Positions 53,323 to 62,644 of a DNA stretch of 64,000 nucleotides are shown here, one piece after another. Within the stretch, counting starts at the first letter, position 1, and each line of letters opens with the position of its first letter. The notes under the pieces were generated by a model, which worked only from the letters and a program-made list of their open reading frames with translations, made no database searches and was not told the origin of the DNA. The DNA is from Acidaminococcales bacterium (lineage in GTDB: Bacteria; Bacillota; Negativicutes; Acidaminococcales; JAISLQ01): contig JAVBNN010000009.1 in the NCBI GenBank assembly GCA_031551525.1, positions 67,835 through 131,834 on the forward strand. The letters are read 5' to 3'. The position numbers were made by a program, and so were the translations under genes.

Positions 53323-54681
53323 ATGAGCATAAAAATTGGACTGGTAAGTCTGGGCTGTCCAAAAAATCTGGTGGATTCAGAAAACATGTTGGGCTTACTG
53401 AAAGAAAAAGAGTTTATCCTAACGCCTGAGCCAGCTTTAGCAGATGTTATCATCGTCAATACATGCGGTTTTATTGAGTCTGCTAAAGAAGAATCAATAC
53501 AGGCTGTGTTGGAAATGGCTGAATACAAGAAAAGCGGACAATGCAAAATATTGATTTTAGCCGGTTGTTTAGGTGAACGGTATGCTGAAGAATTGATTGA
53601 AGAAATGCCGGAAGTGGATGTTATAGCCGGTTCCCACGCCTGGCACGATATAGTGGGAACCATAAGGCGCGCACTGGCTGGAGAACGTTTTGTAGTAAGG
53701 CCGGCCGAAGCCGTTTTGAATATAGTTAAAGAGCGTGTCCTTACTACGCCAAAACATACCGCCTACCTAAAAATAGCCGAAGGATGCGATAATGCCTGTT
53801 CTTACTGTGTAATACCGCAATTGCGCGGTCCATATAAAAGCAAGCTTTTTTCCGATGTAATCGCCGAAGCGCAAAAAATGGCTGGAGAGGGAGTAAAAGA
53901 ACTCATCCTGGTAGCGCAGGATGTCACCAGATATGGAGAAGATCTTACGGGAAGTTTGCTGTTGCCGGATTTGCTGGAAGCCTTAACCCAAATCCCGGGG
54001 GTGGAATGGCTAAGGCTCATGTACGCCTACCCGCAGTATATAACCGGTCGTTTACTCGATACTATTGCCGCCCAGCCTAAAGCTTGCAAATATCTCGATA
54101 TCCCGCTACAGCACGCAAGCACTTCGGTGCTTGATCGTATGAACAGGCCGGATAGTAAAGAAAGCATTACCAATCTTTTAACAGCCATCCGCAAAACAAT
54201 TCCCGGTATTTGTTTGCGTACCACTTTCATCGTCGGTTTTCCCGGCGAAACAGAACAAGAATACCAAGAACTGAAAAAATTTTTGCTGGAACAAAAGTTT
54301 GACCGTGTGGGCATCTTCTCCTATTCGCAAGAAGAGGGCACTGTGGCGGCCGAGTTGCCACAGGTAGACGAAGAAACAAAAGAACGGCGCTTTCACGAAC
54401 TCATGTCTTTGCAGGCGCGTATTTCTGAAGAAAAAAATGTTGACCTTGAAGGTAGTGAACTGACTGTTATGGTAGAAACCATAGAAGACGCCGAAGCGTC
54501 AGTGCCGGCCGCCGGCCGCTCTTACCGTGAAGCCCCTGACATAGATGGGGTGGTTTATCTAGAAAAAACAGTTGGTTTGGAGTTAAAACCCGGTGATATA
54601 GTAACGGTCCGTGTACTGCAAGGATTTAGCTATGATCTGGCAGCGGAAGTAATTCATCCAAAGGCAGGGGATACCCGATGA
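53323..54681 (+). CDS. rimO: ribosomal protein S12 methylthiotransferase
   Basis: LVSLGCPKNLVDSE, NTCGFI, EGCDNACSYC and a C-terminal TRAM domain. Confidence 0.9.
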   Translation: MSIKIGLVSLGCPKNLVDSENMLGLLKEKEFILTPEPALADVIIVNTCGFIESAKEESIQAVLEMAEYKKSGQCKILILAGCLGERYAEELIEEMPEVDVIAGSHAWHDIVGTIRRALAGERFVVRPAEAVLNIVKERVLTTPKHTAYLKIAEGCDNACSYCVIPQLRGPYKSKLFSDVIAEAQKMAGEGVKELILVAQDVTRYGEDLTGSLLLPDLLEALTQIPGVEWLRLMYAYPQYITGRLLDTIAAQPKACKYLDIPLQHASTSVLDRMNRPDSKESITNLLTAIRKTIPGICLRTTFIVGFPGETEQEYQELKKFLLEQKFDRVGIFSYSQEEGTVAAELPQVDEETKERRFHELMSLQARISEEKNVDLEGSELTVMVETIEDAEASVPAAGRSYREAPDIDGVVYLEKTVGLELKPGDIVTVRVLQGFSYDLAAEVIHPKAGDTR

Positions 54682-55913
54682 AAGTAGAAATCGTCAGCAC
54701 CGGAACCGAATTGTTACTGGGTGAGATAGTAAACACGAATTTTCAGTATTTGGCGGGAAGGTTAAACGCTTTAGGTTTTGATGTTTTATACGAAACTACT
54801 GTGGGCGATAACTATGGGCGCATGAAAGACGTCCTGGCGCATGCCTTGGAGCGAGCAGATATCGTCATCACAAGCGGAGGGCTCGGGCCGACCCAAGGCG
54901 ATATAACAAAAGAAGTAACAGCCGACCTCTTACAAAAACCACTATTTATGGATAAAGAGATACTGTCTGACCTGGAAAAGTTTTTCGCTTTTCGCGGAAT
55001 CTGTATGCCGCAAAATAATGCCAAACAGGCTATGGTACCGCAAGATGGCATTGTTTTACCAAATAAATGCGGCACGGCTCCCGGCATACTTATCGAACAC
55101 GATAATAAAATCATAGCCAACCTGCCCGGCCCTCCTCGCGAATTAAAAGACATGTTTGAAAAACAGTTGGCGCCCTGGCTTATCAATAAATATGGACAGC
55201 AAGGAGTCATCTATTCATATACCCTTAAATCGGCGGGTTTGGGAGAGTCTACCGTAGCGGAAAAACTGGCCGATTTGATAAGCGAGCAGAGCAACCCGAC
55301 CATCGCTTTATATGCCCGCCAAGGAGATATCCGAATTCGTATCACCGCTAAAGCAGACGATGAAGAAACCGCTAAAAGACTTACTAGCGACTTGGCTGAT
55401 AAAGTGCGCGGGCGGCTTGATTCTATCTATGGCGAGGGTGATGACACCCTCGCGTCTGTTCTGGGCGATACTTTGCGCGAACGCCAACTTACTATTTCTA
55501 TCGCTGAATCCTGTACCGGCGGTCTCGTAAGCAACATGCTGACGGATATTGCTGGAAGCTCAGGTTATTTCAATGGCGCGGCCGTAACTTACAGTAACCA
55601 GGCTAAGCAAGACATCCTGGGAGTAAATATGGCTGACCTCTCAACTTATGGCGCAGTCAGCGCAGAAATCGCTGCTCAAATGGCCGAAGGCGCGGCCCGG
55701 CATTTTAACAGCAACCTTGGTATAGGCATCACCGGCATCGCCGGTCCGGGCGGCGGTAGTGAGGAAAAGCCGGTAGGTACAGTATATATTGCCATTTGTT
55801 TTTCCGGGCATACTACAACAAAAAGACATACTTTTTCCGGTCAGCGCGCCGATATAAAACTGCGTACAGCTAGCATGGCTATGCTGGATGCTATAAAAAC
55901 CATAAAAGGCTAA
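54678..55913 (+). CDS. cinA: competence/damage-inducible protein CinA (MoCF-binding + PncC NMN deamidase domains)
   Basis: VEIVSTGTELLLGEIVNTN, TSGGLGPT.D.T and the C-terminal AESCTGG motif. Confidence 0.9.
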   Translation: MKVEIVSTGTELLLGEIVNTNFQYLAGRLNALGFDVLYETTVGDNYGRMKDVLAHALERADIVITSGGLGPTQGDITKEVTADLLQKPLFMDKEILSDLEKFFAFRGICMPQNNAKQAMVPQDGIVLPNKCGTAPGILIEHDNKIIANLPGPPRELKDMFEKQLAPWLINKYGQQGVIYSYTLKSAGLGESTVAEKLADLISEQSNPTIALYARQGDIRIRITAKADDEETAKRLTSDLADKVRGRLDSIYGEGDDTLASVLGDTLRERQLTISIAESCTGGLVSNMLTDIAGSSGYFNGAAVTYSNQAKQDILGVNMADLSTYGAVSAEIAAQMAEGAARHFNSNLGIGITGIAGPGGGSEEKPVGTVYIAICFSGHTTTKRHTFSGQRADIKLRTASMAMLDAIKTIKG

Positions 55914-55932
55914 TTTAGGAGGAAATATTTGC

Positions 55933-57519
55933 ATGACAATAAATCAAACCAGTACTTTTGGAGACATAGTTTTAGATAAAAAAATAGTGGGTGCGCTTAC
56001 CGATATGGGCTTTGAAGAACCATCGCCCATACAGACACAAACTATACCTTTGGTATTGTCCGGGAAAGACGTTATTGGGCAAGCTCAAACAGGAACGGGC
56101 AAGACCGCGGCTTTTGGCATTCCCATTACACAAAATATAGCAGCCGATTCTCGTAAAATACAGGCGCTTATCATGACGCCGACCCGTGAACTGGCAATAC
56201 AGGTGTCGGAAGAACTAAGCAAGATCGGTCGTTTGCGCCGCATAAAAGCCCTGCCGGTGTACGGCGGACAACCGATCGACCGCCAGATCCGTGCGCTCCA
56301 TATGGGCGTGCAGGTGGTTATCGGTACGCCGGGGCGGTTGCTCGATCATATACGCCGCAATACCATCAAGCTTGATAACATAAAATTTTTAGTTCTCGAT
56401 GAAGCCGATGAAATGCTCGATATGGGTTTTATCGACGATATCGAAACCATTATCAAAAATATACCCGAAGAAAGACAAACTCTGCTTTTTTCTGCGACCA
56501 TGCCCAGGCCCATCTTGCGTCTGGCAGAGCGTTACATGAAATCGCCTGCTGTGGTCAGTGTAAGCAAAGAAGAACTGACCGTTCCTTTGATCGATCAATA
56601 TTACTACGAAACAAATAACAAAGTAGATGGACTTTGTATGGTGCTGGATGTTGAAGATGTAGATAAAAGTATCATTTTTTGCCGTACCAAAAAAGGCGTA
56701 GATGAACTGGTCAGCGCACTTGGCAACCGGGGGTATTTCGCAGAAGGCCTGCATGGCGACCTTAGCCAAAGCCAGCGCGACCGGGTAATGAAAAAATTCC
56801 GCGAAGGCAAGGTAGATATTCTTGTCGCCACTGACGTGGCGGCGCGCGGTCTTGATATAGACAACGTAACCCACTCGATAAATTTCGATATACCGCAAGA
56901 CCCGGAAAGTTATGTGCACCGTATCGGGCGTACCGGCCGTGCCGGCAATAAAGGCACGGCGCTGACCTTTATTACTCCGCGTGAATTTCGCCAGCTAAAA
57001 CTTATCGAAAAAATAACCAAGACACGCATAGTGAGAAAAAGCCTGCCTACAGCCGTAAATGTGCTCGAGAGGCAGCGAGATGTGATCATTTCACGTATGT
57101 TCACTATCCTTGAACAAGATAAATTTCATAGCTATAAACCCATTGTAGAAGAACTGCTTGAAGAATACAGCGCTGAAGATATAGCCGCCGCCGCGCTAAA
57201 GTTCATGCAGGAAGGCTCTAAAGCCATGGAGGCAGAAGAAAAAGGCACCATTTTTGCCAATACCGGCGGCAAAGTTGGTATGGTACGTTTGTTTATGAAT
57301 GTAGGACGCAGTCAAAAAATAGCCCCGGAAGATATTGTACGCAAAATTGCCAGTGAAGCCGATATTCCGGGCAATACAATAGGGCTTATCAACATATACG
57401 ATAAATTTACTTTTGTTGAAATACCTGAAAATGTGGCGGAAAAAGTTGTTAGTGTGATGCACAAGAGCACCATCAAAGGCTTCAAAGTAAATGTCGAACC
57501 CGCCCGAGGACGGGACTGA
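55933..57519 (+). CDS. DEAD-box ATP-dependent RNA helicase with DbpA-type C-terminal RNA-binding domain
   Basis: Q-motif (F..PSPIQ), AQTGTGKT, PTRELA, DEAD, SAT, HRIGRTGRAG. The C-terminal region MVRLFMNVGR...IGLINIYDKFTFVEIP resembles a DbpA domain. Confidence 0.9.
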   Translation: MTINQTSTFGDIVLDKKIVGALTDMGFEEPSPIQTQTIPLVLSGKDVIGQAQTGTGKTAAFGIPITQNIAADSRKIQALIMTPTRELAIQVSEELSKIGRLRRIKALPVYGGQPIDRQIRALHMGVQVVIGTPGRLLDHIRRNTIKLDNIKFLVLDEADEMLDMGFIDDIETIIKNIPEERQTLLFSATMPRPILRLAERYMKSPAVVSVSKEELTVPLIDQYYYETNNKVDGLCMVLDVEDVDKSIIFCRTKKGVDELVSALGNRGYFAEGLHGDLSQSQRDRVMKKFREGKVDILVATDVAARGLDIDNVTHSINFDIPQDPESYVHRIGRTGRAGNKGTALTFITPREFRQLKLIEKITKTRIVRKSLPTAVNVLERQRDVIISRMFTILEQDKFHSYKPIVEELLEEYSAEDIAAAALKFMQEGSKAMEAEEKGTIFANTGGKVGMVRLFMNVGRSQKIAPEDIVRKIASEADIPGNTIGLINIYDKFTFVEIPENVAEKVVSVMHKSTIKGFKVNVEPARGRD

Positions 57520-57525
57520 ATAATA

Positions 57526-57556
57526 AAAACCGGTTCTTAGTGAACCGGTTTTATTT
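57526..57556 (+). terminator. intrinsic terminator
   Basis: AAAACCGGTTC-ttagt-GAACCGGTTTT followed by ATTT. Confidence 0.8.
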
Positions 57557-57592
57557 CCAACGGTCTGTTTTTAAAACACTGGGGGGATCAAT

Positions 57593-59407
57593 ATGCCGGA
57601 GATTACCGGAGATATAAAAGGATTAAAAAAAGCTACAACTGCAGAGCTCAAAGCGCTCTATGAATATAAGAACAGTGAAGGCTTGCTGCTTGGCATGGAA
57701 CTGGTAAACGCGCTGGCCGCACTAACAGAAAAATGCGGCCGTGAGATCGCGGTTTATCTGAACAGGCGGGGGCAGGTGGAAAATGTATCTATCGGCGATA
57801 GCAGTACTGTGGGACTACCGGAATTTTCGGGCAGAAAAGCCTTAAACCGTCTCAGCGGCATGACCTGTGTGCATACCCATCCAGGCGGTGACAGCGGTTT
57901 GAGTGGGGTGGATTTTGCCTCGCTGCAAAAAATGCGCTACGATATGATGATTGCGATTGGGGTAAAAAACGGCGAGGCCACTGAATTAAGTATAGGGATT
58001 ATTTCCGGTTTTGAATCTGGTGATGGCTACACAGTGGAACAACTAGGCCCTTATGATCCGGGTGAATTTTATAAATTAGACTGCCTGAAGATAATCTCCT
58101 ATATTGAGAACCTGCTCGCTGACAGCAAAGAAGCAAAATATCAGGGCAATAAAGAAGAAACAGCCTGTCTGGCCGGTATTGACTATGGAAATGAAAAACT
58201 TCCGGTAGAAGAATCTTTGTCAGAATTGGCCCAGCTTTTAGAGACTGCCGGCGCAGTACCTAAAGATGCCATGTATCAAAAGCGTAGCGCTCCTGACAGC
58301 AGTCTTTACTTAGGCCGCGGCAAAATAGCGGAACTGTCTTTGCTTTGCCAGCAATGCCATGCCAATATGGCTGTATTTGACGACGAACTGACTCCGGCGC
58401 AACAGCGCAACCTTGAGCGCGAACTCGGGATAAAAATAATAGACCGAACAGCACTTATTCTGGATATTTTTGCGCAAAGGGCAAGAACCCACGAAGGCAA
58501 ACTACAGGTAGAACTTGCGCAAATGCATTATAACCTACCGCGTCTTATGGGGCAGGGCATGGTTTTGTCACGGCTCGGCGGCGGTATAGGTACACGTGGC
58601 CCTGGTGAAACCAAATTGGAAACAGACCGGCGCCACATCAGAAACCGCATAGCGGAAATAAAACGTCAACTGGAAAAAGTTAAAAATATCAGGCAACTAC
58701 ATAGAGAAGGGCGTAACGCAAATAATACTCCCTCGGTTTCCCTCATAGGCTACACCAATGCGGGAAAGTCGACCTTGCTCAACGCGCTTACTAAAGCCGA
58801 TGTATATGTGGAAGATCAGGTATTTGCTACCCTTGATCCTACCACCAGAAAGCTTTCGCTACCATCAAGCAAAGAAGTGCTTATGACCGATACGGTAGGT
58901 TTTATCCGAAAACTGCCCCACCAACTCGTGGCTTCCTTCAGGGCAACCCTTGAGGAGGTTGTGCAGGCTGACCTTCTTATACATGTCATAGACGCCAGCC
59001 ACCCTTTTTATGAGCAGCAAAGTGACGCTGTATACAAAGTATTGCAAGAACTGGGTATACATGATAAAAAAATATTGACTGTATTCAACAAAATAGACAA
59101 AGTTTCAGATGAAAATTCGTCTGAACGCATGTTACGACTCGAGAACAGCGTGGCCATCTCGGCCAGAGAGTCCATCGGGCTGGATAAACTATTACTGCTT
59201 CTGGATGAAAATTTATCCAATTTTACTATTGAAGAAACATTCATGATCCCTTATGAACAAAGCGCCATAGTGGCAAAATTGCATGAAATAACCCATGTAA
59301 AAAGCATTGAATACCAGGAAACAGGTGTGCTCGTAGAGGTTTCCGGTGCGCCGGATCTGCTTGGCAAATTTGCCGGCTTTCGAAAGGACACTTCAAATGA
59401 GAATTGA
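57593..59407 (+). CDS. hflX: GTPase HflX with ~185-aa N-terminal JAB/MPN-like extension
   Basis: Canonical HflX from ~residue 190 ([53 protein letters not shown]). The N-terminal extension carries E51...H94-T-H96-x7-S104-x2-D107. GGGGGG RBS. Confidence 0.9.
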
Positions 59408-60623
59408 TAAACTAAGTAAAGAAATTTTGGAGAAAATTTCTGAAAAATTTGAATTGCATCAGGAAGTAAGTTTTTATAACACTAAAAAAGTAGTGGATGC
59501 TTTCCGCGCACACAGAGTCTCTGAATATTATTTTAGCGGTAGCAGCGGTTATGGTTATGCCGACCAAGGACGGGACAGCCTGGGAGATATATATGCCGAG
59601 ATTTTTGGCGTTGAAAAGGCTTTGGTCCGGTCACAGTTTGTTTCCGGAACACATGCGCTTTCCACTGCATTGTTTGGTGTTTTGCGCCCGGGTGATGAGC
59701 TTTTGGCTGTAACTGGCGCTCCTTACGATACCTTGCAGACCGTCATAGGGGCAACCAGAAAACAAGCCGGTTCGCTAACTGAGCACGGCATTCTATACAA
59801 GGAAGTGGCATTAAAGGATGGTGTACCTGACCTCGCGGCAATCAAACAGGCTATGAACAGCAAGACTAAAATAGTCCATATCCAACGTTCGCGCGGTTAT
59901 GCCGATCGAAAAACTCTTTCGGTCGAAGAAATAGGAGCTATTTGCGCAATAGTAAAAAGGTATAGAAAAAATTGTATATGTTTTGTGGATAATTGTTATG
60001 GTGAATTCACAGAGAAAACAGAACCCACGCAAGTGGGAGCTGATCTAATCGCGGGTTCCTTGATAAAGAACCCAGGTGGGGGACTGGCGCCCTCCGGTGC
60101 CTATATAGCCGGTCGTAGCGAGTTGGTAGATATGGCGGCACGGCATTTAACAGCTCCTGGGTTGGGCGATCAGATGGGGGCAACACTCGGAATAATACAC
60201 CGATTGATGTATCAGGGGCTTTTTCTGGCACCACACGTCACCTTGCAGGCGATAAAAAGCGCTATTTATGCCGCTGGTTTATTTGAAAAGTTAGGCTATA
60301 AGGTATCTCCTTGTGTAAATGATTTTCGCAGTGACATAATACAGTGTATCGCTCTTGATACACCTGAAACGCTACAGGCTTTTTGCCAGGCTATCCAAAG
60401 AAATTCTCCTGTAGATGGGCATGTTATGCCGATCCCCGGGCAAATGCCTGGCTACAATGATCCTGTCATTATGGCGGCTGGAACCTTTGTACAGGGTGCT
60501 TCAATCGAGTTGAGTGCAGATGGGCCAATGCGTGAACCATATAATGTATATCTGCAAGGCGGATTGACCTTTGAGCATAGTGTGCTGGCATTGTCGTCTG
60601 CTGCACGTGATATCATTGGTTAA
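59397..60623 (+). CDS. ynbB: YnbB-type PLP-dependent protein (aluminium-resistance / methionine gamma-lyase-like family)
   Basis: Conserved position directly after hflX, as in B. subtilis ynbA-ynbB. GYGY.D.GRD, SGTHA and IQRSRGY motifs. Start at the ATG overlapping the hflX stop. Confidence 0.8.
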
Positions 60624-60709: not shown

Positions 60710-62644
60710 ATGCATATCGGAATTCCCATCACAGCAATAATGGCTGTAACTTTAATAATATACTGGTTTATCAAAAAAGTTGGCATTCATATTCGTTTTG
60801 CCATTTTGTTATTATGTGGTTTCAGCGGTCTCTTCTTAGGGTTATTTTTGCCTAAATTATTGGTTCCTCAATTAAGTTTTACTGGCACGATACTCTCTGT
60901 TTTGATATTAATGTTTCTCCTATCGTTAGCTTTAACGTGGTTTTTCGGCATAGAAAAAAATAACGATACAGAAAATGAGATTATATTTAGCGGCAAAATC
61001 CCCGCTTTCTTTGAAAACATACTTCATCAAGAAATATCCCCGCCTGCTCAAAAAGAAGAGTTGTCAGTCTTTATTCCTGAAGCCCTTGAAGGCGTCAACA
61101 CACTTTTATCTGCTAAAGTTGAAATTACTACCCCAAACATACCGCAAGAGATGACTTCAGAGCTTTCTTTCCACGAAAATACTGTTATGATAGCTGAATG
61201 TAATGAAGTAGTTTTACCGCAGGAAAATGTTAGTAATAATAATGACAAAATAGATGATGCCCCCGGATTTTCCAATGTGGAAAATTTGCTGGATAAAAGT
61301 TTGGTTGATAGTTTAGAAATTCATTATGAAAATAAAGCAGTAGCGAAAAAAGTTGAACTTATTATTGAAAAAGAAAGGCCTAAGGAAAAGCACTTTGCTA
61401 TACGTCCCTCGGTCTTTACTGATGATTTCTGTGAAGGGGAATGCCGATATCCGTTTGAAGATGTTATATTGGATATAAAAGCACAGGTACTGCCACTTAC
61501 TGTACCGTCCGAAGTAACTCATCCTACTGCCACCACAAATGATCAACCTTTAATCTTGGCGATGGAAGATATACAGCCGGCGGCGATTGCAGATAACACA
61601 CTACCTGGCGAAGAAACCGTTTACCAGAGGGTTTTAGAAAAAACACTTCTTGTAGATGCTAGTGATATAACGGATATTTACAGTGACATACCGGTAACAC
61701 AAATAGAAAGCACGCCAATGCATTCAGAAAACAGAGATGTTTTTGTGCATACTGAAAACATTTCACCCACTGACACTTCGGGTATTTTAGAGCGTATATC
61801 CGAAAGGGTCTCTCGTGCTATTAACTATTCAAATGCAACGTTACGCATGGAAAACAATTGTGATTACGTTGCCGATGCAACTCAAACACATGGTTGCAAA
61901 ACGGAAAACATTCTCACGGCTTCCCCAAACACCGACCTTTCCTGGACGGCAAATGAAGTTTATGCTGCCATGGCCGATATCGATTTTGTGCCAATAGTCA
62001 ATGATAAAATGGTTGGTGTTACCGGTGAAAATAGTGGTTTTTCTGTACCCGCCGAAAACTACTCTATTTATGATGTGGCGCTTTTATCTGCGGGGTTGCC
62101 GGAGTATGGAGTTATTACCAAAGAAACCCCTGCTAATGCATTTGAAAAATATGCGGAACAATATCAGTGTCTACAGGAAGATGACGATTCCAAGGGTGTT
62201 GTGATTGTACAGAATGATGTATTGGCACTTAAAGCACCGGCGGAAGAAGTACAGGTACCTAAATCCGATTCATTGGAGGACTTACTGGATTTTGCTTTTA
62301 TGCAGAAGGAAAAACAACATTATGACCAGGCTCTTTTTGCCTTTTCTATAGCGCGTGATCTTTATCCTGGCAACGACTTTGAATCTTTGTTATCAATTGA
62401 AATAGCCAATCTGTATAAACTAAAAGGGGAGTATGACCTGGCAATAAAATCACTGCAAGAGGGCATGGAAAAAGCTACTATGGATACAGTCAGACAGGAG
62501 TTTATTGCCAATATTGCCTATATGCGCATCATACATAATATTCTTGTGGGAAATCAGCTAACATTATTGCCATATGATGAAATACCTGCTAAAGTAAAGA
62601 AAGACATAGAATTGGAATTTGGCGAATGGAAAAAATTTGCCTGA
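60710..62644 (+). CDS. hypothetical membrane-anchored protein: ~3 N-terminal TM helices, long acidic low-complexity middle, C-terminal TPR-like repeats
   Basis: 644-aa uninterrupted ORF. The locus is visibly more AT-rich than its neighbours. No catalytic motif recognised. Weak RBS. Confidence 0.55.
   Translation: MHIGIPITAIMAVTLIIYWFIKKVGIHIRFAILLLCGFSGLFLGLFLPKLLVPQLSFTGTILSVLILMFLLSLALTWFFGIEKNNDTENEIIFSGKIPAFFENILHQEISPPAQKEELSVFIPEALEGVNTLLSAKVEITTPNIPQEMTSELSFHENTVMIAECNEVVLPQENVSNNNDKIDDAPGFSNVENLLDKSLVDSLEIHYENKAVAKKVELIIEKERPKEKHFAIRPSVFTDDFCEGECRYPFEDVILDIKAQVLPLTVPSEVTHPTATTNDQPLILAMEDIQPAAIADNTLPGEETVYQRVLEKTLLVDASDITDIYSDIPVTQIESTPMHSENRDVFVHTENISPTDTSGILERISERVSRAINYSNATLRMENNCDYVADATQTHGCKTENILTASPNTDLSWTANEVYAAMADIDFVPIVNDKMVGVTGENSGFSVPAENYSIYDVALLSAGLPEYGVITKETPANAFEKYAEQYQCLQEDDDSKGVVIVQNDVLALKAPAEEVQVPKSDSLEDLLDFAFMQKEKQHYDQALFAFSIARDLYPGNDFESLLSIEIANLYKLKGEYDLAIKSLQEGMEKATMDTVRQEFIANIAYMRIIHNILVGNQLTLLPYDEIPAKVKKDIELEFGEWKKFA

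Follow-up and report, generated by a model that had tools for sequence, protein, structure and literature searches.

We analyzed a 64,000-nucleotide stretch of DNA from an Acidaminococcales bacterium (assembly GCA_031551525.1, contig JAVBNN010000009.1, positions 67,835 to 131,834), hereafter the window, in which a single open reading frame (ORF) joins an additional N-terminal domain to the GTPase HflX. The N-terminal ~160 amino acids (aa) are very probably a divergent JAB/MPN+ domain carrying the JAMM motif, fused to a housekeeping HflX. We propose in addition that the domain is a hydrolase directed at the ribosome; the domain identity and this mechanism, taken together, have in our view an even chance of being correct. 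The ORF and the numbering of the motif residues (E51, H94, H96, S104 and D107) in the original prediction, which was made from this DNA sequence, were reproduced by translation of 57593..59407. The features on which the argument depends, all on the plus strand of the window, are the following:

57593..59407, +, JAB/MPN-HflX fusion ORF, complete, with an ATG start, 604 aa plus stop.
57593..58072, +, probable JAB/MPN+ domain, residues 1-160, assigned from an AlphaFold2 (AF2) model, Foldseek, the family profile and Prok-JAB matches.
57743..57745, +, codon of E51, the putative JAMM catalytic glutamate, invariant in 165/165 homologues and aligned to the RadC glutamate by hhalign.
57797..57862, +, flexible conserved loop, residues 69-90, with the consensus D-x-x-T-V-x-L-P-x4-R-R-x3-R-L-S-G.
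57872..57913, +, predicted metal-binding core, H94-T-H96-P-G-G-D-S-G-L-S104-G-V-D107, recognized by its invariant residues and the AMSH-LP alignment.
58073..58162, +, helix 164-177 and low-confidence linker, residues 161-190, joining the JAB domain to the ND1 domain of HflX.
58163..59404, +, canonical HflX core, assigned by Pfam, TIGR03156 and the HflX chains of the PDB.

Identification of the N-terminal domain by profile and fold searches

Run exhaustively against 1.84 billion cluster representatives, phmmer recovered 611 relatives of the N-terminal domain at E ≤ 1e-3, 237 of them at E ≤ 1e-10, and nearly all were ~600-aa proteins or contig-end fragments of such proteins; a word-indexed homologue search with the N-terminus alone returned a single fragment. 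When 35 diverse orthologous N-domains were compared with Pfam, 23 matched Prok-JAB (PF14464) and 8 matched RadC (PF04002), and one orthologue exceeded the curated Prok-JAB cut-off (25.9 against 25 bits, model positions 7-103 of 114). The JAB models of PADLOC were matched weakly by 16 of the same 35 members. A hidden Markov model (HMM) of the N-domain, built from an N-domain-only alignment because a profile of the full-length alignment was swamped by GTPases, matched only AMSH-LP, Sst2 and STAMBP in the PDB (E 0.015-0.08), and it aligned IHTHP...LS.VD of AMSH-LP residue for residue with the motif. A tblastn search of the domain against 50,697 phage genomes gave no match.

The predicted structure points to the same superfamily. 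The AF2 model of residues 1-190, computed with a 150-sequence alignment, reached a mean predicted local distance difference test (pLDDT) of 86.7 and a predicted template modelling score (pTM) of 0.84. It comprises a strand at residues 4-6, helices at 13-24 and 35-48, strands at 52-56 and 62-67, the loop 69-90 and a strand at 91-97 ending in the HxH pair, followed by a helix at 105-114 and strands at 118-125, 128-140 and 146-154. In this model E51 starts the strand after helix 35-48, H94 and H96 end the central strand, and S104 and D107 start the next helix, a placement that we take to be the JAMM arrangement of known MPN structures; residues 1-160 thus appear to adopt the MPN alpha/beta fold of the JAB/MPN+ superfamily. 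The best Foldseek matches in the PDB were CSN5, SRU_2040 (2kcq), PfJAMM1 (5lda), Rpn11, BRCC36, Mov34 and Npl4. Matches in BFVD were labelled 'MPN family', '26S proteasome regulatory subunit' and 'RadC-like JAB', with probabilities up to 1.00, and included phage MPN/RadC-like proteins; the Foldseek statistics were moderate. Similarity to JAB/MPN proteins thus emerged from the profile searches as well as from the fold searches.

The original prediction had described the domain more narrowly as RadC-like, and this part of the claim holds only at the level of the superfamily. The motif residues E51, HxH and SxxD fall in register with RadC, both in hhalign comparison with the single sequence of E. 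coli YicR (3.9% probability) and with a RadC alignment (23% probability, P 8.9e-4). The family consensus, however, scored 12.7 bits against RadC (E 0.12, cut-off 22.1; best single member E 0.01), with Prok-JAB scoring better (23 against 8 of the 35 members), and a Pfam scan found no trace in the 604-aa protein of the N-terminal UPF0758/helix-hairpin-helix module (PF20582) of RadC/YicR, which is listed for many longer (≥185-aa) YicR homologues. Membership of the RadC family was accordingly rejected, and judged by these scores the domain is a distinct family of the JAB clan, closer to Prok-JAB than to RadC.

The same comparisons bear on the idea that the domain is a RadC-type nucleic-acid hydrolase, which HflX would deliver to stalled ribosomes and which would there cut or trim rRNA, mRNA or tRNA, for instance peptidyl-tRNA. 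Besides the register with YicR/RadC, the weak RadC matches of 8 of 35 members and the RadC-like phage proteins among the fold matches, conserved arginines are clustered around the motif, the rest of the domain being acidic (median net charge -4), and they would suit an action on RNA or peptidyl-tRNA. To our knowledge, no JAB domain has been firmly shown to act as a nuclease, and the RadC match is the weaker one (12.7 against 17.8 bits for Prok-JAB; hhalign 23%), with PF20582 absent. JAB belongs to the deaminase-like fold, for which an ancestral action on nucleotides or nucleic acids has been proposed (PMC3239186), which is in favor of such a nuclease; on balance we consider it unlikely.

A further hhalign comparison, with the single sequence of phage lambda K, gave a motif-level match only. 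As a separate observation on that protein (L084:1277-1873, NC_001416; 199 aa, annotated as 'C40 family peptidase'), its annotated start lies 15 residues before VHSHPGG..LSEAD and seems to remove the N-terminal half of its MPN domain.

Conservation of the JAMM motif

The residues of the N-terminus read E51...H94-T-H96-x7-S104-x2-D107, which corresponds to the JAMM signature E-x(n)-H-x-H-x7-S-x2-D (H94 is encoded at 57872-57874 and D107 at 57911-57913). The H-x-H-x7-S-x2-D pattern arose in 197 of 200,000 composition-preserving shuffles of the protein (0.1%), no second instance was found among the ORFs of 80 aa or more when the window was translated in all six frames, and no other JAMM-motif protein was found in the 81 related loci. 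Seven residues, E51, R58, H94, T95, H96, S104 and D107, are invariant in all 165 full-length homologues, and the full motif, together with T95, is kept in 148/148 N-domain homologues that are only ~30-50% identical to the query. The complete signature claimed in the original prediction is thus present, and far from being poorly conserved, its five residues show no exception in either set. Near-invariant positions besides the motif are G6, R50, G60, G68, R82, L87, R91, C92, P97 and D117.

Within the domain, the loop 69-90 has the lowest pLDDT (54-77), while V73, L75, R81, R82, R86 and L87 are conserved in 85-98% of sequences. From its place between strand 3 and the HxH strand, this loop would be equivalent to Ins-1, the segment that gives the substrate-binding site of other JAMM enzymes its shape.

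Two side observations concern single positions. The query carries K82 (57836-57838) and T91 (57863-57865), where the family has Arg in 92% and 95% of sequences, respectively; its catalytic residues are unaltered. C92 (57866-57868), two residues ahead of H94, is 95% conserved and should face the same side of the strand as H94 and H96, so that a role as additional ligand or as redox-sensitive residue is conceivable; at this position the JAMM deubiquitinases have Trp or Tyr (AMSH-LP 'GWIHTHP').

Translation of the extension and the HflX core

The remainder of the protein, residues ~190-604, reads as an orthodox HflX with all four domains. TIGR03156 matches residues 192-540 (E 2.7e-147; 490.3 bits against a cut-off of 216.75), and Pfam assigns GTP-bdg_N to residues 206-294 (ND1), GTP-bdg_M to 296-374 (the helical domain), MMR_HSR1 to 382-500 (the G domain) and HflX_C to 512-579. 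The G1, G3 and G4 nucleotide-binding motifs are intact in the translation, including NKID. HflX chains in the PDB from mycobacteria, E. coli and Listeria match by phmmer with E 1e-101 to 1e-85; these matches begin at their residues 8-23, opposite query residues 165-205, and residues 10-14 of E. coli HflX align with query residues 190-194, in agreement with the predicted onset of canonical HflX around residue 190. Judged by orthology, this HflX would split 70S ribosomes in a GTP-dependent manner and bind the 50S subunit.

Two local signals precede the fusion ORF:

57526..57552, no strand assigned, terminator-like hairpin with an 11-bp stem, a 5-nt loop and a T-run, from a consensus scan and the sequence.
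57581..57587, +, Shine-Dalgarno-like GGGGGGA, 6 nt 5' of the hflX ATG, read from the sequence.

The hairpin sits between the gene of a DEAD-box RNA helicase and hflX, just 3' of the former, and probably ends helicase transcription. Both the ribosome-binding site and the preceding terminator that had been predicted are therefore recognizable; a consensus scan called no sigma-70-like promoter between the hairpin and the hflX start.

We conclude that the extension is translated, as had been supposed, because conservation at the protein level begins at residue ~3 in at least 589 genomes, the extension always lies in one ORF with HflX, and no ATG occurs between residues 150 and 226, where only TTG codons at 209 and 212 are found. 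An annotation artefact with a true start near residue 190 is in practice ruled out by the lack of an ATG there, the conserved protein sequence upstream and the intact ORF in 80/80 loci. A chance motif is likewise ruled out, given the 0.1% frequency in shuffles, the invariance of the residues, the 611 homologous cluster representatives and the confident AF2 model. Together these two explanations, to which the failure of the query alone to match any database family lends some appeal, have a negligible probability in view of relatives that extend over residues 1-160, the model and the intact ORFs.

An identical protein (P0002) was found; the 604-aa sequence occurs on an NCBI contig and in a Logan assembly. 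Its best named relatives are HflX proteins of Acidaminococcales and Sporomusaceae (57-59% identity), and ~600-aa orthologues are found throughout Negativicutes and Clostridia.

Phylogenetic distribution and obligate fusion

To survey the distribution of the domain, one genome from each GTDB species was scanned with a degenerate pattern, and relatives among the matches were confirmed. This survey gave at least 600 pattern matches, 80 loci were inspected for ORF structure, and gene-neighbour clustering was carried out on 81 loci. The domain is present in at least 589 species genomes, which include Sporomusa, Pelosinus, Propionispora, Phascolarctobacterium, Succiniclasticum, Mitsuokella and Selenomonas, as well as Caloramator, Pseudobacteroides, Ruminiclostridium, Fusicatenibacter and members of Oscillospiraceae. 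At all 80 inspected loci the motif lies in a single ~560-650-aa ORF that runs on into HflX, or in an ORF truncated by the contig end, and no stand-alone catalytic domain was found among the best 150 of the 611 phmmer matches. Precomputed Pfam annotation shows JAB on none of the 120 closest homologues. Since one orthologue exceeds the Prok-JAB cut-off, the combined Prok-JAB and HflX architecture is probably already displayed, without comment, in a few database entries.

Relatives of the domain that lack the full motif

The closest non-HflX relatives that we found are lipoprotein-like proteins from outside the window, in which an N-terminal LptE domain is followed by 4-5 tandem copies that belong to the N-domain subfamily. 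These are P0127 (1090 aa) and P0249/P0391 (869/895 aa), one annotated as LptE of a Nitrospinota bacterium and one related metagenomic; this tandem-repeat architecture looks undescribed. Each copy matches the HflX N-domain profile with E 1e-13 to 3e-23, the N-terminal helical part included, and none keeps the full motif, the HxH pair being replaced by RxN, YxN, RxG, HxQ or HxN. These repeats are presumably non-catalytic and periplasmic. Because they keep the fold signature without the JAMM residues, those residues are not needed for folding, and their retention in the HflX-fused domain speaks for a site that functions in metal binding or catalysis and does not serve structure alone.

These relatives also lend weight to a different view, according to which the domain keeps its metal site without performing chemistry and acts as a steric wedge or anti-association block at the intersubunit face of the 50S subunit, docks onto rRNA or a ribosomal protein, or regulates the GTPase by sensing metal or redox state. 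Clearly non-catalytic repeats belong to the same subfamily, non-catalytic scaffolds are frequent among MPN domains (the fold matches include Mov34/Rpn8, CSN6 and Npl4), and an 18-kDa domain ahead of ND1 would be expected to clash with the 30S subunit. In mycobacterial HflX, an extension of 39-58 aa alone already alters splitting (PMC12493154). Scaffold MPN domains, however, characteristically lose their JAMM residues, whereas all five are invariant here in 165/165 homologues, and the invariant set extends to two residues that do not bind the metal, the general-base Glu and the Ser, a pattern typical of active enzymes. We therefore regard a purely non-catalytic role as rather improbable.

Genomic neighbourhood

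The genes that surround the fusion, all on the plus strand, are listed below:

54678-57519, +, cinA (MoCF_biosynth, CinA_KH and CinA domains) followed by the DEAD-box helicase gene, directly upstream of hflX.
55933..57519, +, DEAD-box RNA helicase gene, 528 aa, with DEAD and SAT motifs, directly upstream of hflX.
59346..60623, +, gene of a ynbB-like pyridoxal phosphate (PLP) enzyme (PF06838, Pfam E 5.8e-175), which overlaps the 3' end of hflX at 59346-59407.

A ynbB-type gene lies downstream of the long hflX in 65 of the 81 related loci, and the order cinA, helicase, hflX, ynbB is found in about 35 of the 81, mostly in Negativicutes. When all ORFs of these loci were clustered, the only conserved neighbours were ynbB, the DEAD-box helicase gene, cinA, a radical-SAM (RimO-like) gene and lexA. 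The 644-aa product of a further gene of the window (60710-62644, +) has hydrophobic segments in its N-terminal part and a weak TPR signal in its C-terminal part, with no confident family match; its homologues adjoin hflX in 20 of the 81 loci, downstream in 17.

The B. subtilis gene ynbA, which we take to be hflX, stands in the same order: its ynbAB operon has the hflX-ynbB arrangement of the fused hflX locus, with a short HflX. As this order is shared, the long HflX is the orthologue of the housekeeping hflX locus, whose neighbours are translation-related. The linkage between HflX and an enzyme of elongation factor P (EF-P) modification is therefore old and conserved. In B. subtilis, ynbAB forms an operon and ynbB acts in the modification of EF-P at Lys32 (5-aminopentanol), while deletion of ynbA had no effect in the EF-P modification screen (PMC5885033).

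Prokaryotic JAB enzymes often belong to cofactor or amino-acid pathways, for example Mec+/CysO and QbsD. The domain might accordingly be an active hydrolase with a non-ribosomal substrate, such as an isopeptidase or amidase in a pathway of metabolism or modification, for example one linked to the co-transcribed ynbB and EF-P modification, the fusion serving only for co-expression. The conserved operon (65/81 loci) and the role of ynbB in Lys32 modification fit such a function, but B. subtilis keeps ynbAB with a short HflX and shows no EF-P effect upon ynbA deletion (PMC5885033). Moreover, the domain is fused in 80/80 loci, with no stand-alone form among the best 150 matches, which argues for action in cis with HflX, and we hold this explanation to be quite unlikely.

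Proposed mechanism and its weighing

In solved structures, HflX is bound to the intersubunit face of the 50S subunit. On this basis we propose that the GTP-bound HflX core would dock on the 50S intersubunit face in the same way, and that helix 164-177 and the flexible linker within residues 161-190, where the AF2 pLDDT drops to 44 (residues 181-190), would tether the JAB domain to the N-terminus of ND1, at the position taken by the mycobacterial extension. From there the tethered domain would hang over the tRNA-binding cleft and the bridge region of the 50S subunit. Acting as a Zn2+-dependent hydrolase, it would cleave an amide (peptide or isopeptide) bond in a ribosome-bound or ribosome-exposed substrate, for which a peptide (nascent or aberrant), a ribosomal protein and a bound factor are candidates, and subunit splitting or anti-association would thereby be coupled to a covalent processing step.

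The mycobacterial comparison comes from a phmmer alignment in which the extension of M. smegmatis HflX (residues 23-60 of 8kab_h) lies opposite query residues 165-200 (58085-58192), with weak similarity. The 39-58 aa mycobacterial extension touches uL16 and H38 and stretches as far as the H69-H71 junction; it is required for rRNA disordering during splitting (PMC12493154). As a side observation, this extension and the 165-200 linker might share an origin.

Several findings weigh against this proposal or against parts of it. Residues 1-190 of the query gave no match to Pfam or NCBIfam at E ≤ 10, the search of its N-terminus against the PDB by phmmer returned only noise without a meaningful match, and even the family consensus reached 17.8 bits against Prok-JAB, below the cut-off of 25; a single-sequence AlphaFold prediction of the full-length protein was unusable (pLDDT 36). 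Short HflX proteins without the N-domain split ribosomes well, so that the domain is not required for the core activity, and the placement of the JAB domain on the ribosome is a positional argument extrapolated from the weakly similar mycobacterial segment. The conserved arginines near the site (R50, R58, R81/82, R86, R91 and R115) are equally compatible with an RNA or phosphate ligand. Finally, across the 81 loci no gene for a ubiquitin-like (ThiS/MoaD-type) protein, E1, E2, CD-NTase/CBASS or other obvious substrate is conserved nearby.

The assignment to JAB nevertheless holds despite the silent query, because of the evidence from family-level profiles, fold and invariance. The JAB site is apparently competent for catalysis, a prediction drawn from the invariance of all five residues. 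That the domain catalyzes a reaction on a ribosome-associated substrate we rate slightly below an even chance. More tentative is the notion of a two-activity rescue factor, in which the GTPase splits the ribosome or holds the 50S subunit and the tethered JAMM hydrolase cleaves a ribosome-bound target; possible targets, offered with the same reserve, are a peptide that is nascent or aberrant, the bond between such a peptide and tRNA, a ribosomal protein, and a bound hibernation or inhibitory factor.

Novelty and significance

HflX is a widely conserved factor of stress response and antibiotic resistance. How it works is established for the mycobacterial form and for short forms (E. coli, Listeria, Staphylococcus) only. 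In the searchable full-text literature, no relevant paper was found that brings HflX together with JAB, 'MPN domain' or 'JAB domain', and a search for JAMM and ribosome gave only word-stem matches such as 'jammed', in keeping with the original prediction, which knew of no described function for this fusion. A 2025 review mentions extension-bearing HflX 'in several Clostridium spp.' and identifies no domain, and in the Listeria HflXr paper gap-rich columns were trimmed before phylogeny and the N-terminal domain is not mentioned. Both halves of the protein, the HflX GTPase and the JAB/MPN+ hydrolase, are of known kinds; their combination is real, widespread and undescribed.

A large part of Bacillota thus carries a different HflX, including the abundant gut genera Phascolarctobacterium, Fusicatenibacter and Ruminococcus, cellulolytic and acetogenic clostridia, Sporomusa and Pelosinus. 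The end of this long HflX that would face the space between the subunits bears a conserved zinc-hydrolase domain that is apparently active. Should the domain be catalytic, the splitting of ribosomes would be coupled to cleavage, which would constitute a new rescue or quality-control step and a new role for prokaryotic JAB domains; if the protein is a two-activity factor, it would represent an undescribed covalent step in bacterial ribosome rescue or quality control and the first ribosome-directed bacterial JAB enzyme. There is also an annotation gap, as Pfam and NCBIfam miss the domain in the query and none of the 120 closest homologues bears a JAB annotation.

Comparison with known systems

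Prok-JAB (PF14464), the best-scoring Pfam family for HflX N-domains, comprises prokaryotic JAMM/MPN+ metalloproteases such as PfJAMM1/HvJAMM1 in SAMP deconjugation, the CysO-cysteine hydrolase Mec+ and Cap3 of CBASS. The HflX N-domain has the fold and the E...HxHx7Sx2D zinc site in common with them and differs in its added N-terminal helical hairpin and its long, conserved, Arg-rich loop 69-90, in its covalent joining to a ribosome GTPase, and in query and consensus scores under the curated cut-off; unlike in those systems, no ubiquitin-like, E1, E2 or CD-NTase genes are conserved near the fused hflX. With RadC/YicR (PF04002) it has in common the pattern E-x-f-x-v-x-x-L-D/N ... H-x-H-P-x-G ... 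S-x-x-D, but the scores are weak, the UPF0758/HhH module is missing and the genomic and functional context is different. Among the eukaryotic JAMM deubiquitinases, AMSH-LP/STAMBP/Sst2, Rpn11, CSN5 and BRCC36 are top fold matches with a flexible segment at the Ins-1 position in common, and AMSH-LP/STAMBP/Sst2 are the sole PDB sequences matched by the family profile (E 0.015-0.08). Identity to these enzymes is 12-18%, the HflX N-domain has neither Ins-2 nor a second zinc site, and the host has no ubiquitin system, so that the kinship is limited to fold and active site.

On the side of the GTPase, canonical HflX (E. coli, 5ADY; L. monocytogenes Lmo1296/HflXr; B. subtilis YnbA) has the same four domains and G motifs as residues ~190-604. 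It measures 418-431 aa, whereas here a folded, enzyme-like domain of 160 aa and a linker stand ahead of ND1. Mycobacterial HflX (470-483 aa) resembles the present protein in carrying additional sequence ahead of ND1; in mycobacteria this is an unstructured extension of 39-58 aa, and in the present protein a folded domain with a linker.

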